From: a virus
Virus record (IMG/VR): IMGVR_UViG_3300046534_001250
Coordinates: 1-64,000 of that record
Direction: 5' to 3' (one strand)
DNA length: 64,000 nt
Shown here: positions 2,101-47,929 of the stretch, piece after piece
How positions within the stretch are numbered: position 1 is the stretch's first letter
Layout: the number at the start of each line of letters is the position of its first letter
Notes under the pieces: generated by a model
Databases searched by the model: none
What the model was told of the DNA's origin: nothing
The model's input: only the letters and a program-made list of their open reading frames with translations
Translations under genes and position numbers: made by a program

Positions 2101-2128
2101 GAGGCGAGCCCACAAGGCTCGCCTCTTT
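2101..2128 (+). terminator. Intrinsic terminator
   Basis: GAGGCGAGCC-CACAA-GGCTCGCCTC-TTT. Confidence 0.7.
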
Positions 2129-2142
2129 CATTTGGGGGTCCT

Positions 2143-3864
2143 ATGGATCTACCCGTTTTTGTATTCAGCGAAGACGACTGTGTACCGTTTCCAGGCACAC
2201 AGATGCTACTCGATTTACCATTAGAACGAGCCAAGCTACTCAAGTCAGCAAGCTTAAGAGAAGCAGCAACTGGCAAATACTCTGATCAAATCGCAATAGG
2301 CTTCTCTGTAAGAGACCCTCGGGTTGTAATGAGTTCTATTGATGAATACTCAACTAGTGTCCATGAAATTGGAATACTATGCAGAGTAGATGAACGAGAG
2401 GAATGTGACGACTTTGAACTCATTCACCTTACTGGTATAGAGCGCATCTACTTACACGATTTCAGAATAATGGAATCACCTAGTACAGACCAGTCTATCA
2501 TCTTAACAACACATCAGCCTGTAAGCGAAGACTTCCTAGAAGCAGAAGAAGCTTTGATTCACGACATGGAAAATCTCTTCAATCTCATTACTGAGAATCC
2601 AAAGATTTATCCTGCGCTATTAATCGCAGACATTCAAGCAACTCAAAGTTTAATCTCAAAGATGAATAAGCTAGCAGACTATCTGCTAGGAAGTCCGCAA
2701 GAAAGAATTAAGTATCTATTAGAAGATGATAACTATGTTCGATGGGATAGTATAGTTACGCTAACCGTAGCTATGGCTGCTAAGCGACCTAAGATGTCTG
2801 GAAAAAAGAAGAAACCAGTTATAAAGAAGCAGCCAGCAAAAGAAATAACTGTCCCAGAGCAAGCTCTGCAGCTTCCATTAGACGAAGACTCTATGCGCAA
2901 CATTAAGCGCGAAGTAAATAAGTTAGAGAACTTGGCCAAAAGCAGTACAGAGTACGCTATGGTTATGGACTACTTAGATTGGGTTGTATCTGTTCCCTGG
3001 AAAAACACATCCTATAAAGACTTTGATCTGTCTAAGCTAAGAGAAACTTTGGATGAGACTCATTATGGTCTTGACGAAGTCAAAGCCCATATTCTAGAGC
3101 ATCTAGTTGTTGAACGACTACGCGGTGGTAACACCGGTACAGTATTATGCTTTGTCGGTTCGCCCGGTACAGGAAAAACTAGTATTGCTCAGCAGATTGC
3201 AAAAGCAACTCATAGACCCTTGCAACGAATTGCATTGGGCGGGCTAAGCGACGAAGCGGAAATTCGAGGTCACCGCAGAACTTACGTAGCTAGTAAGCCA
3301 GGTAGATTTATCACCGGGCTAAAGACCGCCAAAGCTATGGACCCGCTCTTTCTTCTAGATGAGGTCGATAAGATAGCTAAGTTCAAAGGCGATCCCATGA
3401 CAGCGCTTCTAGAGGTCTTAGACCCAGAGCAAAATCATTCCTTCGTTGACAGATACCTAGAGGTACCAGTGAACTTAAGCCAAGCTATGTTCATTTGTAC
3501 CGCAAACAATAAAGCAGACATTGACCCAGCCTTATTAGATAGAATGGAACTGATTGAGTTCCGAGATTACACTCTCGAAGAAAGAACACACATTACAACC
3601 AACTATCTAATGCCCAAGGTATTAAGCTTCTACAAGCTAGAAAGCTTTAATATTGTTTTCGATCCTACGCTGATTGATGTACTGTGTAAAAACAGTATAC
3701 AGATTAGACAGATTGAAAAAGACATAGCAAAGCTGCTTAGGATGGCTGCAGTCAAAATTCATGTACATGGAAGTGAGAGAGTTATCATTGATAGCGATTT
3801 CTCCGACCAAGTACTCAACAAATATAAAAGTAAAAACAAGCCCATTGGGTTTGGAGGACGATAA
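2143..3864 (+). CDS. Lon-family AAA+ ATPase (Lon N domain + AAA+), no protease domain, C-terminal IGF tail
   Basis: LPVF..VPFPG N-terminus; LDETHYGLDEVKAHILE; Walker A GSPGTGKTS; DEAEIRGHRRTY; Walker B LLDEVDK; LLDRMELI; ends KPIGFGGR with no PKDGPSAG. Confidence 0.92.
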   Translation: MDLPVFVFSEDDCVPFPGTQMLLDLPLERAKLLKSASLREAATGKYSDQIAIGFSVRDPRVVMSSIDEYSTSVHEIGILCRVDEREECDDFELIHLTGIERIYLHDFRIMESPSTDQSIILTTHQPVSEDFLEAEEALIHDMENLFNLITENPKIYPALLIADIQATQSLISKMNKLADYLLGSPQERIKYLLEDDNYVRWDSIVTLTVAMAAKRPKMSGKKKKPVIKKQPAKEITVPEQALQLPLDEDSMRNIKREVNKLENLAKSSTEYAMVMDYLDWVVSVPWKNTSYKDFDLSKLRETLDETHYGLDEVKAHILEHLVVERLRGGNTGTVLCFVGSPGTGKTSIAQQIAKATHRPLQRIALGGLSDEAEIRGHRRTYVASKPGRFITGLKTAKAMDPLFLLDEVDKIAKFKGDPMTALLEVLDPEQNHSFVDRYLEVPVNLSQAMFICTANNKADIDPALLDRMELIEFRDYTLEERTHITTNYLMPKVLSFYKLESFNIVFDPTLIDVLCKNSIQIRQIEKDIAKLLRMAAVKIHVHGSERVIIDSDFSDQVLNKYKSKNKPIGFGGR

Positions 3865-4049
3865 TGATTCAAATCACACTAGACAAGCTACCACAGCGTA
3901 TTTGGTTCGCAAAGAATACTAAGACCGGCAAAGCCCAGATTAGATTCAGTCGAGGCGAAGTACGTGATATTCGAGATGACGCTAAAGCCAAAGGAGAAGC
4001 TATGACCATCGGGTCATATGCTACACCAACGGTTGCGACCCACGGATAG
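3864..4049 (+). CDS. Small hypothetical protein
   Basis: TAATG coupling to the Lon-like gene. Confidence 0.6.
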   Translation: MIQITLDKLPQRIWFAKNTKTGKAQIRFSRGEVRDIRDDAKAKGEAMTIGSYATPTVATHG

Positions 4050-4088
4050 GTCTTGGCCCCTTACAGGGCCTTTGTTTCAAAGGCAGTC

Positions 4089-4313
4089 ATGAATTTATAT
4101 TGTATCAATTTAGACATCTGTGGCTGGTTTGGAGAGTTCGCTGATGACAGTGAATTCTCCTGCCCTGTTTGCCACGCTTTAGCTATTCCGCTAGAGAAAT
4201 TAAGAACGGAAAAAGATGAACTTATTAACCAGTTCGTCTTCGCAGAAGCTGACCTCCCTGGTGAATCTTCACAAAGAGAACCAGAAGATCCAATGGAAGA
4301 TTCTGACTCCTAA
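4089..4313 (+). CDS. Small Zn-ribbon protein with acidic tail
   Basis: C-x5-C...CPVC. Confidence 0.55.
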   Translation: MNLYCINLDICGWFGEFADDSEFSCPVCHALAIPLEKLRTEKDELINQFVFAEADLPGESSQREPEDPMEDSDS

Positions 4314-4773
4314 TACTGAAGTCACACGTTTGCGAGCCTTGTTAGGCGTTTCACAAACTTACTATTCCAAAACAAAATCAGGGTTGTTGACCTCCGCAAA
4401 GATGAGGCAATTGCAAACAGTGGGTATTCACCCCACTAAGACCCACTATCATAAAGGACTGGTGAGTACAGTACTCTATACCAAGGGATTAAACCTTGAT
4501 CTGTCGGCTATTGACGCACACATAAGGACCACTGATAGCGCTGAGATTAACAACCTTCATATTGAAGCTAGCATACTTCAATACTTAGCTTTTAATAAAC
4601 AAGGCGTCTCTACGAAAGAAGCATTAAAAGAAAGAAACAAACGACTATGTGTAATCGCTAAAGTAGCTTTACCTTCCTATGTTTGGGAAGAGCTTAGATC
4701 CACAAAAACGTTTATGAAAAACACAGCCCCTTATGTTGGGCTGTACAAGGCATCACTCAATGAATCTAAATGA
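4216..4773 (+). CDS. Hypothetical protein
   Basis: 185-aa ORF overlapping neighbours in operon fashion. Confidence 0.6.
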   Translation: MNLLTSSSSQKLTSLVNLHKENQKIQWKILTPNTEVTRLRALLGVSQTYYSKTKSGLLTSAKMRQLQTVGIHPTKTHYHKGLVSTVLYTKGLNLDLSAIDAHIRTTDSAEINNLHIEASILQYLAFNKQGVSTKEALKERNKRLCVIAKVALPSYVWEELRSTKTFMKNTAPYVGLYKASLNESK

Positions 4774-7066
4774 CAATTTCAACTTCATCTTGCCATACTC
4801 TATTGGCGGCAATGCTTCAAATCTATCTCTGGAGGCATCTAGAAACTTTGCTACGTATTACTCTGGATATAGAGGATGGTGTGCAGAGAATATATCCATT
4901 GACGAAGGCCCTGACAGATACTCTTACACGTCGCGGTCAAGCCTTACACTAACAAGAAATTGGTTAGTTCCAAGATTTGAAATTGATACTCCAACATGGT
5001 TTGTCAGATGCTCAAGTATTGAAACTTGGTCTAGAAGAGAAAGCGTAATTTCCAACGCTAGTTTGCCTGCAAAACACAATAGAGATTTACCATTCTTGTG
5101 GGTAATTCCAAAGCCTGCTGTAGTTGAAAACGGATATTCATATGCTGACTCAGAAACAATTGCGTACTTAGAAAGCCCACTGTTTTCTATAGCAGTCGCA
5201 GGGGATCCACTAGAAGGATCGCAGGGGCTTAACGGTACTAATAACATTAGGCATCAGCGCCACCAGCATGGCGTCTTGCGCATCTTTTCCAAAGAACAAG
5301 CAAGCGAATTGATTCCAGAGTTAGAGAACAAAGTCCCTACGATTAAAATCACAGGGCTGACCAGAGCTACTCCAGCTAACCCAAAGCCTAGTTATTCACT
5401 CAAGAAGCAAACCAAAGCACAAATCTTATCTGGCCAACGGCTATTCAGTTATATCCAGATAGTTACTGTCGTCGCAAACGACGGAACAGAAACTACAGAA
5501 AACTTGATTTCAGTAGGAATAGTTGGAGATGAAATACTCTTGAACTCCAGATACTCCGCTATATGTCTTCTAGCATTGATTGAATTTATTACATCAACAG
5601 AGTGGATAAATGATATCAAGTACCCGAACCAGGCTATTGTTCGAAACTTTTCTAGCGATCCAGAGTTCTGTCTATATTCTCAACCAACTGTGCCGTTTAA
5701 TATCAGCAATATCCCTGACACCAGCCACACGTCATTAAAAAACAGAGAGGCTAGCGATCTTACAGTCTTGAACTCTAGCGAAAGTGTTACTCGTGCACCG
5801 TTTGCCAGAACTTATTTGGCGGCAGTAAACAAAGTGGAATCTTACAGAGATCAAATTAAATCAATAGAGCAGGAAAGGAAGAGACACGAACAATTGATCC
5901 TTGAACACACCAGTTATATTGCAGAACGTACGCGTAAGATTGATCGGCTACAGAAAGATATCCTGACCGATAAAATACTTGTCAGAGAGGAACGACAAAA
6001 GGCTTTAATTGCTTCAGAAGCAATTCTCAAGCAAACTGATATCGTTGAAGTACTGACTCCGCAACTAGATGGACTTAAGGAGCTATTTAATAGCAAGTTA
6101 GAAAAATATACAGCTGAAGGAAGTTCTGTTCCTGCACTGGATAAGTATTTGTCCAACATGGGAATCAAGATTACTAAGTTGACATTCTTTGATGCTGAAG
6201 GCGAAACCATCAAATCACAAGACGTAGATGTAACCGGCATCCTTATGAATAGGTATGCAATCAAGAGTATGTCTTTTGAAACAACCCGACCTATGAACAT
6301 CAACGTACTGGATACTAACAAGCAAGTAGTTGATACTAGAGTCGGTGGACCATACCGTGTACGTCTCAAGCGATGTGCTGTACAGGAACGCTTTCAAGTA
6401 CGGATTAATGCATTAAGTCATGACAGTATTATAGGCATCGAACCTGTAACAAACACCGGCATCTTTTACGCAAAAGCCCATCCTCATACTGGCTGTTCTG
6501 CCTTGAAAAGAGATGATTATGTATCAGGGCTTGAAAGTCTTGTAAGCCAAGATATTGAACCATGTCTAGGCGAAGCCGAAGCAGCACTAGCTACTGCTAG
6601 CAAAACAAATAACATCAAAATGATTTTATTTGCAATGCTATCTTGGCTCAAGAATGCATACAAAGACGATCAATGGGGCAGGACCGCAGCCTGGTTTCCT
6701 AAGCCACGTTACATCGCTAATATGCTATTAGGAGAGGAGCTTGCTGCAGCAAAAATAGCTGTTTCTAACAATGGAATAAGCCTAATAGCTTATGCCAAAA
6801 TTGCATATTCAACAGACTACAGTATAACTTGGAGTCATGATGGAGCAATTGTGTGCGAAGAAGGCATAAGCTACGGTAAAGACCAATACAAGACTCTCTT
6901 ATTTTTCAAGAATAAAGAAGAGGCAAATTACTACATGCGTACACGATCTCAAGATTGGTTATCGTATTATCATAAGTACCATACTACAGATTGGTGCTTA
7001 GAAATTCTTAATGATTTTCCAGCCGAAACAGAAACACAAGAACAAATAGAAGAAATAAATGCATAA
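4760..7066 (+). CDS. Large multidomain protein with coiled coil and prokaryotic E2 (UBC-like) domain; possible C-terminal WGR-like domain
   Basis: AHPH (6479) ... PCLG (6563) ... WLKNAYKDDQWG; upstream of JAB, E1 and Ubl genes. Confidence 0.65.
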   Translation: MNLNDNFNFILPYSIGGNASNLSLEASRNFATYYSGYRGWCAENISIDEGPDRYSYTSRSSLTLTRNWLVPRFEIDTPTWFVRCSSIETWSRRESVISNASLPAKHNRDLPFLWVIPKPAVVENGYSYADSETIAYLESPLFSIAVAGDPLEGSQGLNGTNNIRHQRHQHGVLRIFSKEQASELIPELENKVPTIKITGLTRATPANPKPSYSLKKQTKAQILSGQRLFSYIQIVTVVANDGTETTENLISVGIVGDEILLNSRYSAICLLALIEFITSTEWINDIKYPNQAIVRNFSSDPEFCLYSQPTVPFNISNIPDTSHTSLKNREASDLTVLNSSESVTRAPFARTYLAAVNKVESYRDQIKSIEQERKRHEQLILEHTSYIAERTRKIDRLQKDILTDKILVREERQKALIASEAILKQTDIVEVLTPQLDGLKELFNSKLEKYTAEGSSVPALDKYLSNMGIKITKLTFFDAEGETIKSQDVDVTGILMNRYAIKSMSFETTRPMNINVLDTNKQVVDTRVGGPYRVRLKRCAVQERFQVRINALSHDSIIGIEPVTNTGIFYAKAHPHTGCSALKRDDYVSGLESLVSQDIEPCLGEAEAALATASKTNNIKMILFAMLSWLKNAYKDDQWGRTAAWFPKPRYIANMLLGEELAAAKIAVSNNGISLIAYAKIAYSTDYSITWSHDGAIVCEEGISYGKDQYKTLLFFKNKEEANYYMRTRSQDWLSYYHKYHTTDWCLEILNDFPAETETQEQIEEINA

Positions 7067-8225
7067 AGTAATTGGAACACAAACGATCGTACCTGTTGTA
7101 GGATCTAAAGCTGCTTTAATGATGGACGATACATTGTATCGTCAAACAAAGTATCTAGTTGATTCTCTCAAGACTGACGAAGTCCAGTGGTGGCACCGCG
7201 TCGAGAAAGTAACAGTTGAAGGAGCCACGTATTACATGCTGAAGGATTTGATTATCCCTCATCAAGAGGTACATGCTGCCACTACAGAAGTCGATGGGCA
7301 AAACCAGTACAAGGCTTACCAAGAAATCAAATCTCGCTTTACCCAAGAAGGCACAACAGACACAGAGTCAATGAACAAGTTCATTGGTGGCCTTACTTGC
7401 TGGAGCCACAGTCATGGAAACATGACCGTGGGGCCTTCGCCGCAAGACGAAGCACAGTTTAAGCTGTTCATTGAACAGCAGAGCAAAGATGACTTTGATC
7501 AGATCTTCCTTATGATGATCTGGAACAAGAAAGACGAAATCTATGCTCTCATTTATGATCCTGAAACATGCTTTATGATTGAGAATATTCCTCTGATTGT
7601 ATACTATCCAAATATCGAAACCGACTATATTGACGACGCTGTCGCCAATAAGGTCACAAAAAAAAAGCAAACGTATACACCAGTCAGTCAAACAACCTAC
7701 AGTGGGAAGAATGCCAAGGCTGGGAAGAGTACTACGAACAGCAAAGTCAACAATATGGCTCGGCGTATTCCTAGTGTGGGCGGACTTACGGGCAAGATTC
7801 GGACTCGCGCCTTTCAGCTGGGACAAATTGTCACTCAGTTCAGCAACCGACCTTCCGAACTGACAGAGTTAATGGAGATCTTCACGACTCATCTTGGCCA
7901 TAATGCCAATGCAATTCGTGCTCTCCGAATGCTTATCCACGGTGACTACAAGAACAAGGACCAGTTGAAAGCTTTTGAAAACTGGGACGAATCAGATTAC
8001 GAATTTGAAGTGATGGCGCTAGACAACCTTCTTAACACCGAATGGATTCCTAGCAATGGAATTATTGTACGCTCTCTAGATGTTGTGTCGTTTCTAACGA
8101 AACGACCTTCTCCCATGATTGGTTATGTTATTGACAACTTTTATGAATACTACGATGCTGTATACGAAGAAGCAGCAAAAGCAGTTCCTCAGCTAGAGGA
8201 TGGCGATCATGTCCGCAGTCTATAG
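7059..8225 (+). CDS. JAB/MPN+ (JAMM) metallopeptidase, deubiquitinase-like
   Basis: E(VQW)...HSH-GNMTVGP-S-PQ-D matches E..HxHx7SxxD. Confidence 0.88.
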   Translation: MHKVIGTQTIVPVVGSKAALMMDDTLYRQTKYLVDSLKTDEVQWWHRVEKVTVEGATYYMLKDLIIPHQEVHAATTEVDGQNQYKAYQEIKSRFTQEGTTDTESMNKFIGGLTCWSHSHGNMTVGPSPQDEAQFKLFIEQQSKDDFDQIFLMMIWNKKDEIYALIYDPETCFMIENIPLIVYYPNIETDYIDDAVANKVTKKKQTYTPVSQTTYSGKNAKAGKSTTNSKVNNMARRIPSVGGLTGKIRTRAFQLGQIVTQFSNRPSELTELMEIFTTHLGHNANAIRALRMLIHGDYKNKDQLKAFENWDESDYEFEVMALDNLLNTEWIPSNGIIVRSLDVVSFLTKRPSPMIGYVIDNFYEYYDAVYEEAAKAVPQLEDGDHVRSL

Positions 8226-8904
8226 ACCTACCTTCCTCAGGGCTGCCGCATGGGTAGGCCCGGCTATGTTGACCGACGTTGTTACTATCGTTGGTTGCGG
8301 AGCGACAGGATCATACATCGCAGTTGCTTTAGCCAAGATGGGATTCACCCAGTTCTGTATCTACGATTCAGATTTAGTAGAGCCACACAACTTGCCAAAC
8401 CAAGAGTATGACTCTCGGCATGTTGGAATGCTCAAGGTTGACGCTCTTGAGCTTAAATTGATGGAGTTTAATCCAGATATTACAGTCACAAAAAACAACG
8501 AGTTCTTCACCTCAGATACAGTCATTTCAGATTTCGGCCCAGTCATTTTGACTACAGATACCAATAGTAGTCGTGTCGAAATCATGAATGTATGTAAAGG
8601 AAATTTGATGGTTGACCACGTATTTGAAACCAGACTTGGGTTTCATCACGGCGAAGTTGCCATCGTTGATAATCATGATTCAGAATCCGTTGAAAAATGG
8701 CTGAATACAGTAAAGCCAGATGATGAAATACCAGATGGGCCTTGCAATGAGCGTACATGTACTACTCTAGTAATGATGATTGCCGCGTTTACCGTGCATC
8801 AAATCTGTGAGAAATACAGTGCAGCTACCAAAGATGAAAGATGGATATATAACAAACGAACTCTGATTCAAATGAATCCGAGTCTTACCGTACTCAGTAT
8901 GTAA
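8200..8904 (+). CDS. ThiF/E1-like ubiquitin-like activating enzyme
   Basis: IVGCGATGS; YDSDLVEPHNLPNQ; KV..L; TTD; TRLG; C-terminal Cys residues. Confidence 0.92.
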   Translation: MAIMSAVYRPTFLRAAAWVGPAMLTDVVTIVGCGATGSYIAVALAKMGFTQFCIYDSDLVEPHNLPNQEYDSRHVGMLKVDALELKLMEFNPDITVTKNNEFFTSDTVISDFGPVILTTDTNSSRVEIMNVCKGNLMVDHVFETRLGFHHGEVAIVDNHDSESVEKWLNTVKPDDEIPDGPCNERTCTTLVMMIAAFTVHQICEKYSAATKDERWIYNKRTLIQMNPSLTVLSM

Positions 8905-8913
8905 GGAGAAACA

Positions 8914-9129
8914 ATGGTTGTTTCACTAGTAATTTTCCCAGGCCGTGGCCTTGATGGACACGTCGTTCTTGAAGCAGGCGCAAGTTTGCAAGACCTCGTA
9001 AACAAGCGTGACCTTTCCGGTCGTAGCCTCTGCGTCAATGGCGAAGAAATTCCAAGCTCTGCTTGGGAATCTACCATTCTTGAAAGCGGCTGGGAAGTCG
9101 CTGCTCTGAGCCCTTCTAAGGGCAACTAA
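8914..9129 (+). CDS. Ubiquitin-like beta-grasp protein (ThiS/MoaD-like) ending KGN
   Basis: VNGEEIP..W.ST.LESG.EV pattern, penultimate Gly, strong AAGGAG RBS. Confidence 0.82.
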   Translation: MVVSLVIFPGRGLDGHVVLEAGASLQDLVNKRDLSGRSLCVNGEEIPSSAWESTILESGWEVAALSPSKGN

Positions 9130-9131
9130 TA

Positions 9132-9162
9132 GTACGAGCCCCTTCGGGGGCTCTACTTTTTT
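9132..9162 (+). terminator. Intrinsic terminator closing the Ubl operon
   Basis: GAGCCCC-TTCG-GGGGCTC then T tract. Confidence 0.85.
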
Positions 9163-42316: not shown

Positions 42317-42538
42317 ATGAATAAAGAAGCAGACGTTATTTACGTTGAAGACCTTCTTGAATCAGACGACCCTGTCGACCAAATAGAAGGTAAGATTATG
42401 CTTGCGCTCATGGAACGCTTAGGCCTTGATGAGATTGATCCAAGTCGGCTGGACGTAAAGCATACTGAGACATCATACCCAGAAGGTAATCTTCTAGTAG
42501 AAACCAAAATCGAATATAAAGAGAGAAAAAATGAATAG
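42317..42538 (+). CDS. Small acidic hypothetical protein
   Basis: MNKEADV start; overlaps thyX start. Confidence 0.55.
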   Translation: MNKEADVIYVEDLLESDDPVDQIEGKIMLALMERLGLDEIDPSRLDVKHTETSYPEGNLLVETKIEYKERKNE

Positions 42539-43607
42539 AGAGGAACTACTCGCCAAACATGGTGAGCTTAGAAAGATTGGAACTGATGGTCATGTGCGAC
42601 TAGTAGATGTGATGGGCGATGATGCAGCAATTGTCCAGGCAGCACGAGTCAGTTACGGCAAAGGAACGAAGACAATCAATGAAGACCGGGGACTCATCCG
42701 GTACTTGATGCGTCATCGACACACCACGCCTATGGAAATGTGTGAGATTAAACTCCACATTAAGATGCCTATGGACAGTCATCGACAGCAAATTCGTCAC
42801 CGAACTTTCAGCGTAAATGAATATAGTACGCGTTACAGCGAAGCTATGGACTGCAGAGAGGTTACACCAGTAGAAGGGTGGAGGCTCCAGAGCCGAAACA
42901 ACAAGCAGGGATCCGCAGGGTTCATGATTGATGCTGACGAAGCGCACCTTGAGGGCAACATGCTCTCTGGTGTAGAGGTCGCAGATAGGCTATCAGCCCG
43001 AGAGCTAGAACTACATGAGCTATCTAATGCCGTGTACCAAGAGCGTCTAGCTGCTGGTGTTGCTCGTGAACAAGCTCGTAAGGATTTGCCGCTTAGTACT
43101 TATACAGAGTACTACTGGAAGGGCAACCTCCATAACTTGTTCCATTACCTAAGTCTACGTATGCACTCTCACGCTCAAAAAGAGATTAGAGAATTTGCGG
43201 AAGCTATCTATGATATAGTACAAGACTGGGTACCTATTGCAGTCGAAGCGTTTAAGGACTATCGTCTTGAAGCCAGTGGTTTCAGTGGTCCTGAATTGCG
43301 GATCCTAAAGACTCTGTTATCAACCAACCATGGCGAACTTATCCAACACGTTGACTACGACTACCCAGAGGGCGATGACGAGTTTGAACAGTTTTATGCC
43401 GAAGTGGCTTTTACAACTGGGCTCAAGACTGGACTAGCAAAAGAAGGCTGGTATCTTTTTTCTGCTAAAGACGGGAAGGCAGAGCTTCGCAGGCCCAGAA
43501 CCGTACACGACTTAACACAAGATGAACGTATTGGGTTCATGGAAGATGAAGGAGTAAGTAATGCAAGAGAACGAAGAGAATTCTGGGTTAAGCTCGGAGT
43601 TGTGTAA
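42531..43607 (+). CDS. thyX: FAD-dependent thymidylate synthase
   Basis: AARVSY; H.TP.E; RHRTFSVNEYSTRY; AREQAR..LP; HAQKEIR. Confidence 0.96.
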   Translation: MNREELLAKHGELRKIGTDGHVRLVDVMGDDAAIVQAARVSYGKGTKTINEDRGLIRYLMRHRHTTPMEMCEIKLHIKMPMDSHRQQIRHRTFSVNEYSTRYSEAMDCREVTPVEGWRLQSRNNKQGSAGFMIDADEAHLEGNMLSGVEVADRLSARELELHELSNAVYQERLAAGVAREQARKDLPLSTYTEYYWKGNLHNLFHYLSLRMHSHAQKEIREFAEAIYDIVQDWVPIAVEAFKDYRLEASGFSGPELRILKTLLSTNHGELIQHVDYDYPEGDDEFEQFYAEVAFTTGLKTGLAKEGWYLFSAKDGKAELRRPRTVHDLTQDERIGFMEDEGVSNARERREFWVKLGVV

Positions 43608-46540: not shown

Positions 46541-46851
46541 TGCACGATATAAAAATCATTAATGACGTCCAGCAGCCTATGCCAGAAATACTGGAGAACG
46601 GCCCATGGATTCATCATGCGACTTTAAAAGGCAGTCGAGGTCAAGAATACATTGTGTTCAGACAGGCTGCTACCAACAAGCTATACATTGAACGCGTAGA
46701 CAATAGCGTGACATGGACTCTAGTCAAGATTAAGGACGAATCAGAATGGGCAGAAGTTGCTCAATTTTGCGCAGACGCAGGCTTATTACAGATTGATAGC
46801 GATGTCAAGGCCTCTAAATCACTAGTGGAGCTAATGGATAATGGCAGTTAA
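46540..46851 (+). CDS. Hypothetical protein
   Basis: GAGGA RBS, TAATG. Confidence 0.6.
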   Translation: MHDIKIINDVQQPMPEILENGPWIHHATLKGSRGQEYIVFRQAATNKLYIERVDNSVTWTLVKIKDESEWAEVAQFCADAGLLQIDSDVKASKSLVELMDNGS

Positions 46852-47254
46852 AAGTAGATGGACGAATCAGTTCAAAACGTTAGATCACAATTCAAAGTTC
46901 CACAATGAAGCAAAACACGTTTTTGCAACAGACTCTTTTTTCAAAGGGCTCTCTTGTTATCAAGAAGTACCAGTCGTAGACTTGTGTCCAGGATACCACT
47001 CAAATGCACATCGTTTTGATTGGTATATAGAAGAGCTAAATGCCATTATCGAAATGCATGGGAGGCAGCATTACGTAGCAGTAAACTACGGTAACGCCTC
47101 TTACGAAGAGGCGCAAAAGGCTTTTAAAGAAATGCAAAACCGAGACAGCGCAAAGAAGCAAGCCGCTCTTGAAGCGGGCTTCACATATACAGAAATCCCA
47201 TACACATACTACAATAAGCTTGATGCTGAAACGCTCAAGAATCTTATTCTATAG
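46841..47254 (+). CDS. Vsr/DUF559-like endonuclease
   Basis: QEVPV; RFDWY...AIIEMHGRQHY; RDSAKK.A...G..YTEIPY. Confidence 0.8.
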   Translation: MAVKSRWTNQFKTLDHNSKFHNEAKHVFATDSFFKGLSCYQEVPVVDLCPGYHSNAHRFDWYIEELNAIIEMHGRQHYVAVNYGNASYEEAQKAFKEMQNRDSAKKQAALEAGFTYTEIPYTYYNKLDAETLKNLIL

Positions 47255-47263
47255 GAGTACAAC

Positions 47264-47929
47264 ATGACAGAAGATGAAACCGTAGTCGAAGAGCCAGTTG
47301 AAGAGGAAGGCGTTGAAGGCTTTGATCTCGCAACCTTAATAGGCGGAAGCTCACAAGAAGTATGGAGACCAGACACGGTTGCTTTCTTTGGCTCAGCCAA
47401 TAGGAGTATCTTGATGTCAGGAGAGGTAGACCAGTCAATGGCAGACGCCATGATCGGGCAACTCCTTCAGCTAGACGAAGAATCTAACGACCCAATCGTA
47501 GTCTATATCAATACTCCAGGTGGAGAATTAGATAACGCACTTGCTATCTACGATACGATGCAGACTGTCGCTAGTCCAATCTTTACGATTGCAGTCGGAT
47601 CATGCATGAGCGCAGGGCTATTGCTCCTTCAAGGTGGAGACGTAAGATCGTCTATGCCGAGAACAAGGCTCATGTATCATGAGCCAATGGCTGGTGCCAA
47701 CGCCTTCAATAGCGAAGGTGCTGATGCTTTCGCAGCAAACTACGCTTGGGCCAAGCAGCAAATGAAAGAGATCCTGACAGAAGGAACGAACATCACCGAG
47801 AAAGTGTGGAAAGACACTTTCGCAGGGAAGACTGCAATGTTCCTTTCGGCTCAAGAAGCTCTTGAGCTAGATCTATTAGATGTCATTATGACGTACGCCG
47901 ATAAGGCAGTATTGCCAGATGGCAAGTAG
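47264..47929 (+). CDS. clpP: ClpP-family (S14) peptidase
   Basis: QLLQLD..S.DPI.VYINTPGG; AIYDTMQ; GSCMSAG (Ser); MYHEP (His); FLSAQEA. Confidence 0.9.
   Translation: MTEDETVVEEPVEEEGVEGFDLATLIGGSSQEVWRPDTVAFFGSANRSILMSGEVDQSMADAMIGQLLQLDEESNDPIVVYINTPGGELDNALAIYDTMQTVASPIFTIAVGSCMSAGLLLLQGGDVRSSMPRTRLMYHEPMAGANAFNSEGADAFAANYAWAKQQMKEILTEGTNITEKVWKDTFAGKTAMFLSAQEALELDLLDVIMTYADKAVLPDGK

Follow-up and report, generated by a model that had tools for sequence, protein, structure and literature searches.

The window analysed here is a stretch of 64,000 nucleotides of DNA from a large uncultured phage, the first 64 kb of IMG/VR record IMGVR_UViG_3300046534_001250, which is 82,033 bp long and whose completeness is estimated at 62%. 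Close to its start, on the plus strand, lies an open reading frame (ORF; 2143..3864) for a Lon-like AAA+ protein of 573 aa with the C-terminus ...KNKPIGFGGR. The initial annotation, made from the sequence alone, had described this gene as a Lon ATPase whose protease domain is replaced by a terminal IGF motif, and the description was borne out. The Lon N domain and the complete AAA+ motifs were recovered by homology, a family alignment, an AlphaFold2 (AF2) model and Foldseek. The stop codon follows KNKPIGFGGR, with IGF at residues 568-570 (nt 3844-3852), and the TAA overlaps the ATG of the ORF at 3864..4049 (ATAATG), which is the TAATG coupling that had been noted. The Ser-Lys protease domain of Lon (Lon_C, PF05362) is missing from the whole 82,033-bp record. 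The gene and its parts are as follows.

2143..3864, plus strand: gene for a protease-less LonA-type AAA+ unfoldase, 573 aa (homology, AF2 model, Foldseek)
2143..2781, plus strand: Lon-type N-terminal domain, residues 1-213 (AF2 model, Foldseek, PF02190 on relatives)
2782..2850, plus strand: Lys-rich disordered linker, residues ~214-236 (predicted local distance difference test score, pLDDT, <50 at 218-228)
2851..3816, plus strand: Lon-type AAA+ module, residues ~237-558, with invariant Walker A/B, Tyr381, N455, R467 and R522
3157-3180, plus strand: Walker A, GSPGTGKT, within the AAA+ module
3283-3285, plus strand: pore-loop Tyr381, within the AAA+ module
3817..3861, plus strand: flexible C-terminal tail, residues 559-573, basic linker and IGF (low pLDDT, no secondary structure)
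3844..3852, plus strand: I568-G569-F570, of which G and F are invariant in the family

In phmmer searches, residues 238-548 matched human LONP1, B. subtilis LonA and other solved Lon proteins with E ~1e-78. The identity of the AAA+ module to any cellular Lon is only ~40-48%, and the N-domain is far more divergent. The best NCBIfam model was endopeptidase La (TIGR00763), at 374 bits and below its 608-bit cut-off, and the PHROG match was to phrog_15585, a profile of 793 positions of which only positions 259-573 were matched. Pfam recognised AAA domains only, with AAA_2 at 21.7 bits (cut-off 27), and the ClpX model TIGR00382 was not matched. The N-domain of this copy had no Pfam match; PF02190 is annotated on many relatives. 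The AF2 model, built on a 37-sequence family alignment, has a pLDDT of 89.3 and comprises a beta-rich region (residues 1-123), a helical region (133-213), the disordered Lys-rich linker (218-228), and large and small AAA+ subdomains that close with a last helix at 551-558, after which an unstructured, low-confidence tail bears the IGF. Foldseek aligned the whole model over ~600 columns to full-length LonA structures (7p6u, 8ovg, 7fd4), and thus the N-domain is of Lon type too. A homolog search with the N-domain alone returned the closest relative only, a result that yields nothing on fused forms. The ORF stops 25 residues past the AAA+ module, and Lon_C is likewise absent from nine related records, two of them complete. 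In the model, the small-subdomain end that carries the tail is the place where the protease domain of Lon normally begins.

The conservation of this architecture was investigated by a homolog search over 5.8 billion proteins. This yielded 89 protein clusters (530-660 aa) with full-length matches and no Lon_C, many of them from contigs of 100-205 kb, with canonical Lon bearing Lon_C ranking only lower in the list. All 89 clusters carry [ILVMF]-G-[FY] within their last 25 residues (IGF 55, VGF 19, LGF 9, FGF 3, MGF 2, IGY 1, VGY 1), a tripeptide found at the same place in 1.2% of 2,745 unrelated ORFs. In 33 clusters the protein terminates exactly at GF and in the remainder 1-14 residues trail behind it; the 12 residues ahead of the tripeptide have a mean net charge of +2.4 over the 89 clusters. 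Family-specific DNA signatures located further members, so that 14 viral records and 3 metagenome loci have the same architecture and tail ending; the viral records are mostly fragments. The alignment of protease-less Lon homologs that the initial annotation had proposed as a check thus found the motif conserved throughout, in 89/89 clusters and in the 14 viral and 3 metagenome members. Among the matches listed in the metagenome and prokaryote-genome signature scans, 204 of 235 were ordinary Lon; at least three were metagenome loci of the family, too short to reveal their neighbours, and no member from a cellular genome was among the matches listed in the prokaryote-genome scan. A tblastn search against GenBank phages gave AAA+-region matches to ordinary Lon genes only and no family member. 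Because the 89 clusters, the 14 viral records and the 3 metagenome loci share one design, the protease-less architecture is conserved and is not a truncation.

Within the 37-sequence alignment, whose members are 33-62% identical to the query, G569 and F570 are invariant, as are Walker A K345, Walker B D406/E407, pore-loop Y381, N455, R467 and R522. The invariance of ATPase, pore-loop and sensor residues indicates, at the level of sequence, that the protein is a working translocase.

In one related genome (G002; complete, 192 kb) a group I intron (RF00028, 45.3 bits, E 1.6e-9, slightly below the gathering score) interrupts the Lon-like gene at the precise junction of ...AEFRG and the HRRTY pore loop. 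The intron (L066:2632-3548; record ~78863-79782) carries a 246-aa Cys-rich endonuclease-like ORF. Insertion at the pore-loop codons is a typical target choice for a homing element, which favours functionally critical sequence, and we count it for a working unfoldase.

We then asked which peptidase such an unfoldase could serve. Across ten related records, two of which are rated complete, Lon_C, proteasome/HslV (PF00227) and ClpX were each found in 0/10, and the sole AAA_2-like match per genome was the Lon-like gene itself. ClpP (PF00574), on the other hand, is present in 10 of 13 family-bearing records, usually on the same strand at a distance of 36-45 kb downstream; for two of the three ClpP-negative records the contig ends before that position. 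Where the position is visible, ClpP accompanies the Lon-like gene in 11/12 records, counting one (G016) that came from the E1-anchored search described below. These phages have no self-compartmentalizing peptidase besides ClpP. On this count the two orphans look complementary, the unfoldase lacking a peptidase and the ClpP lacking a Clp ATPase. In the window, the gene is the following.

47264..47929, plus strand: phage peptidase of the ClpP family, 221 aa, a candidate for the docking partner; retains Ser (in CMSAG) and His (in MYHEP) but lacks the canonical Asp

The phage protein matches Pfam CLP_protease (PF00574) at 119 bits, above the cut-off, and the NCBIfam ClpP model at 118 bits (cut-off 249), as against 46 bits on the ClpP-related head-maturation model. 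Its residues 46-211 align with solved ClpPs with the catalytic Ser and His in place, and beyond the phage lineage the homologs closest to it are cellular ClpPs. The phage-type clade has an N-terminal W-x-P-x-[DE]-x-x-[YF]-[FY]-G motif where canonical ClpP has the YDIYSRLL helix. The gene sits in a non-structural block amid HNH, PDDEXK nuclease and helix-turn-helix genes. Directly upstream, at 46841-47254, is an HNH/homing-endonuclease-like ORF (phrog_559/9084); in G011 a different ORF of 164 aa occupies the syntenic position.

In two family-bearing records, G007 (C1:41331-41867) and G010 (C1:40242-40781), there is a canonical ClpP of cellular type (~267 bits) that has both the YDIYSRLL helix and the Asp, and the Lon-like gene follows it at a distance of only 6-15 kb. 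Such a ClpP was found in 0/49 Lon-minus records, and its proximity in G007 and G010 is a hint that canonical pockets are the target. Docking on the phage copy was addressed by complex prediction with three copies of ClpP (residues 36-221) and Lon-like residues 476-573. This gave an interface score (ipSAE) of 0.41 against 0.18 for the best control, with at least 53% contact agreement between runs and a partner pLDDT of at least 70. In the calibration, the mark was reached by 58/80 solved complexes and by 2/110 mismatched pairs.

The Lon-like gene heads a cassette of genes for conjugation of a ubiquitin-like protein (Ubl), which is bracketed by terminator-like hairpins.

2101..2125, plus strand: strong terminator-like hairpin, 10 pairs of which 8 are G-C, T-rich tail, shortly before the Lon-like start
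3864..4049, plus strand: 61-aa ORF coupled (TAATG) to the Lon-like gene, no family match
4053-4313: 86-aa ORF with a C...C...CPVC zinc-ribbon-like pattern, between the Lon-like and E2-like genes
4733..7066, plus strand: protein of 777 aa, E2-like solely by the motif of its C-terminal HPH...CLG region, no Pfam or PHROG match
7059..8225, plus strand: 388-aa protein with the JAMM motif HSHGNMTVGPSPQD, JAB-type peptidase by motif
8200..8904, plus strand: ThiF/E1-type adenylyltransferase (Pfam PF00899, 83 bits; PADLOC E1-E2 and NCBIfam matches)
8914..9129, plus strand: 71-aa beta-grasp/Ubl candidate ending ...KGN, weak ThiS match, orthologs ending ...VKGN
9136..9153, plus strand: strong terminator-like hairpin closing the unit

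The first hairpin marks the start of a new transcription unit, and the two together flank 2143-9129. In 13/13 records the E1 gene follows the Lon-like gene on the same strand at a distance of 4.4-6.5 kb, and it is found downstream in G016 too. The E2-like, JAB, E1 and Ubl genes follow the Lon-like gene in 14/14 records, with orthologous intervening genes throughout; the 777-aa E2-like protein has orthologs in all related records, and the Ubl has 71-75 aa and ends in ...VKGN across them. The 86-aa ORF probably belongs to the cassette as well, since weak homologs of it directly precede the E2-like gene in G010 and G011. Fixed linkage in the Lon-plus records, bracketing by terminators and loss in sister phages (below) make the Lon-like gene an optional first gene of the cassette. 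Its tightest linkage is therefore to the cassette and not to ClpP. Several relatives carry, downstream of E1, extra Ubl copies and Ubl domains fused to the N- or C-terminus of larger proteins (L079:6102-6740, L086:1827-2543, L087:7241-8389, L088:4037-4821); the free Ubls of relatives end in a conserved ...VKGN.

Two further features were recorded elsewhere. A ThyX gene at 42531-43607 of the window (Thy1, 172 bits) has a C-terminal extension of ~120 aa past the Pfam domain. On record G000, ~72072-80891 on the minus strand (L068:9072-17891) is a single ORF of 2,939 aa within a block of large minus-strand ORFs that have no PHROG matches and are presumably tail or baseplate genes; a head module is not on this record.

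For the function of the Lon-like protein, we give about an even chance to a Lon-derived unfoldase that docks by its C-terminal tail on a ClpP ring, and see little to choose between the phage and the host ClpP as that ring. In this mechanism, an active hexameric AAA+ unfoldase of LonA descent would have lost its in-cis protease domain. Its N-domain would select substrates, possibly proteins marked by the co-transcribed Ubl cassette, the Lon-type pore loops would translocate them, and six tails would insert in the hydrophobic inter-subunit pockets of a ClpP-type ring (the phage copy at 47.3 kb or that of the host). The outcome would be a two-component protease resembling ClpXP or ClpAP with a Lon motor. 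The docking geometry fits, because the tail exits from the small AAA+ subdomain where the peptidase of Lon normally attaches. A Lon-ClpP hybrid protease was one of two functions suggested in the initial annotation, and that suggestion stands in part: the IGF is invariant, a phage ClpP is present and no other ATPase partner for ClpP was found, but the interaction with ClpP is only weakly predicted, and ClpP is kept without the Lon-like gene and is possibly a head protease.

Several observations weigh against docking on ClpP, and some come from the distribution of the two genes. One family-bearing record, G008, has no ClpP on 75.7 kb. An independent search anchored on the downstream E1 gene, which is unrelated to Lon or ClpP, recovered 65 viral records, 50 of them new. 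Among the new ones only G016 has a Lon-like gene, with its ClpP 40 kb downstream, and six close relatives (G018-G023) keep the same phage-type ClpP without a Lon-like gene; two of these, G020 and G023, are complete genomes. The Lon-minus relatives have the same flanking genes and a 99-115-aa ORF in the place of the Lon-like gene. In the E1 tree, all Lon-plus records fall in one clade (support 100/99), within which the Lon-minus, ClpP-plus records are nested, so that 2-3 changes are needed; judged from these sequences, the Lon-like gene was probably gained once and lost once or twice. The loss lineages (G018, G020-G023) retain ClpP at the same locus. As ClpP persists in Lon-minus lineages, it has a role independent of the Lon-like protein, and co-occurrence of the two is a clade trait and not specific. 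Co-occurrence was accordingly rejected as specific evidence for a partnership, the E1-anchored profile showing ClpP to be clade-wide.

Other points concern the phage ClpP itself. The canonical catalytic Asp is replaced by Ala, Ser or Asn in all phage-type ClpPs, the best PHROG match is 'head maturation protease' (77 bits), and searches of the complete genomes turned up no S77/S78 prohead protease; for these reasons the phage ClpP may be a head-maturation protease. Searches for an HK97-type capsid and portal gave nothing save one weak portal match in G001, which lies ~98 kb from the ClpP of that record on the other strand; against a head-protease role, the ClpP is not in a portal-protease-capsid arrangement. 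The pocket positions, in E. coli numbering, are only partly kept compared with canonical ClpP. At the counterpart of E. coli ClpP Tyr62, an aromatic residue or His is present in 7/7 Lon-plus ClpPs and in 2/6 Lon-minus copies; the latter are few and related, and the difference is a hint from the sequences. The complex score of 0.41 falls in a weak band, since at ipSAE of 0.60 or less the calibration set holds only 7/80 solved complexes plus both passing mismatches, and likeness to solved ClpXP may contribute to it. The model thus lends weak support to binding of the tail to the phage ClpP. Lastly, we know of no experimentally established precedent for a ClpP-docking tripeptide at a C-terminus and not in an internal loop.

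The persistence of ClpP without the Lon-like gene would also suit a Cdc48/p97-like segregase of the Ubl pathway, which would remodel Ubl-conjugates without degradation, its tail docking on a non-peptidase partner (the E2-like or JAB protein) or regulating the hexamer in cis. The position of the gene directly upstream of the E2-like, JAB, E1 and Ubl genes in 14/14 records, in a terminator-bracketed unit, argues for such a role. However, judging from the model and known Lon structures, the tail leaves the ring on the face of Lon's peptidase, opposite the N-domain side of substrate entry, and the tripeptide with its basic context matches the ClpP-docking motif class. Moreover, the cassette is kept without the Lon-like gene in sister phages, which indicates that the protein is not a core cassette subunit. 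We regard a segregase as unlikely, although it deserves serious attention. Joining cassette and docking into one viral tag-and-degrade machine (2143-9129 and the phage ClpP), in which the E1- and E2-like proteins would attach the Ubl, the N-domain would recognise the conjugates, JAMM would recycle the tag and the IGF tails would feed ClpP, seems distinctly unlikely to us; if true, it would amount to a phage counterpart, made from Lon and ClpP parts, of ubiquitin-proteasome or Pup-proteasome systems.

A very unlikely variant is that the six IGF tails fill the pockets of host ClpP, displacing ClpX/ClpA and shutting down or redirecting host proteolysis. The phage ClpP looks divergent and possibly structural, which leaves host ClpP as the pocket-bearing target, and a survey of jumbo phages by Iyer, Aravind and colleagues makes the case that genes of phage peptidase systems can be directed at the host (PMC7824862). 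A pure blocker, however, has no need for invariant Walker, sensor and pore-loop residues, and a redirecting version merges with tail docking on ClpP as proposed above. The second suggestion of the initial annotation, a dominant-negative inhibitor of host Lon acting through mixed hexamers, draws on the Lon N-domain and AAA+ oligomerisation surfaces that the protein keeps. But the AAA+ module is only ~40-48% identical to that of any cellular Lon and the N-domain is much more divergent, and the suggestion leaves unexplained the invariant tail, the conserved catalytic ATPase and pore-loop residues and the operon linkage; we therefore hold it to be highly improbable. Decay of a phage Lon gene by truncation, frameshift or assembly artefact would account for the missing domain alone. 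More than 100 independent sequences, two complete genomes included, have the same length and end, no Lon_C fragment lies downstream or elsewhere, and conservation is strong throughout. A gene remnant is effectively refuted by the family-wide conserved length and tail and the absence of Lon_C.

AAA+ proteases have their motor and peptidase either fused, as in Lon and FtsH, or separate, as in ClpXP, ClpAP, HslUV and the proteasome. If the tail docks on ClpP, the Lon-like protein would be a natural hybrid, a Lon motor whose own peptidase has been swapped for a ClpP-docking peg. The docking tripeptide would then be portable between AAA+ clades and functional from a C-terminal tail, and orphan phage-encoded ClpP genes would gain a partner. 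The position of the gene at the head of a phage Ubl cassette makes it testable whether Ubl tagging by prokaryotic viruses can be a degradation signal.

Compared with the LonA proteases (E. coli Lon, B. subtilis LonA 3m6a, T. thermophilus Lon 7p6u, human LONP1 7ksm/7p09), the Lon-like protein shares the N-domain, the long helix and an AAA+ module with every Lon-type motif, at ~40% identity over that module and with full-length structural alignment. It differs from them in having a 15-residue disordered IGF tail instead of the S16 Ser-Lys protease domain, in scoring 374 bits (<608) on TIGR00763 and in heading a Ubl cassette. ClpX and ClpA are unfoldases separate from their peptidase and carry [LIV]-G-[FL] in a basic flexible element that faces it. 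The present family resembles ClpX, ClpA and ClpC in having a conserved tripeptide of this class on a flexible element in 100% of its members, but its AAA+ module belongs to another clade (no TIGR00382, AAA_2 below cut-off), its motif is on a C-terminal tail where theirs is in an internal loop, and its N-domain is of Lon type and neither zinc-binding nor Clp_N. In HslU-HslV and in PAN, Mpa or Cdc48 with the 20S proteasome, the C-terminal tail of the ATPase enters inter-subunit pockets of a separate peptidase ring. The motifs used there (HbYX, GQYL and the HslU C-terminus) have to form the very end of the chain and rely on Tyr or Leu, whereas the Lon-like tail has 0-14 residues after GF, and no HslV or proteasome gene accompanies it (PF00227 in 0/10 records).

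The genetic coupling of small-protein tagging to an AAA+ unfoldase and a JAMM peptidase recalls the Pup-Mpa-proteasome and ubiquitin-26S systems (Rpn11 JAMM and Rpt ring). The phage parts, in contrast, descend from Lon and ClpP, some members of the clade do without the unfoldase, and the Ubl as a degradation signal finds no support here. LonC, Lon-like-Ms and other degenerate Lons have kept the protease and lost ATPase function (PMC3391209, PMC13069640, PMC4864567). Both they and the present family are Lon relatives missing one activity, with the pattern reversed here, the ATPase being kept and the protease lost. A full-text literature search found no published description of a protease-less Lon with a ClpP-docking tail. 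In jumbo phages, patchily distributed stand-alone ClpP genes have been suggested to serve more than virion maturation (Iyer et al. 2021, PMC7824862), and that survey names no phage-encoded ATPase partner for ClpP. The present family would supply one.

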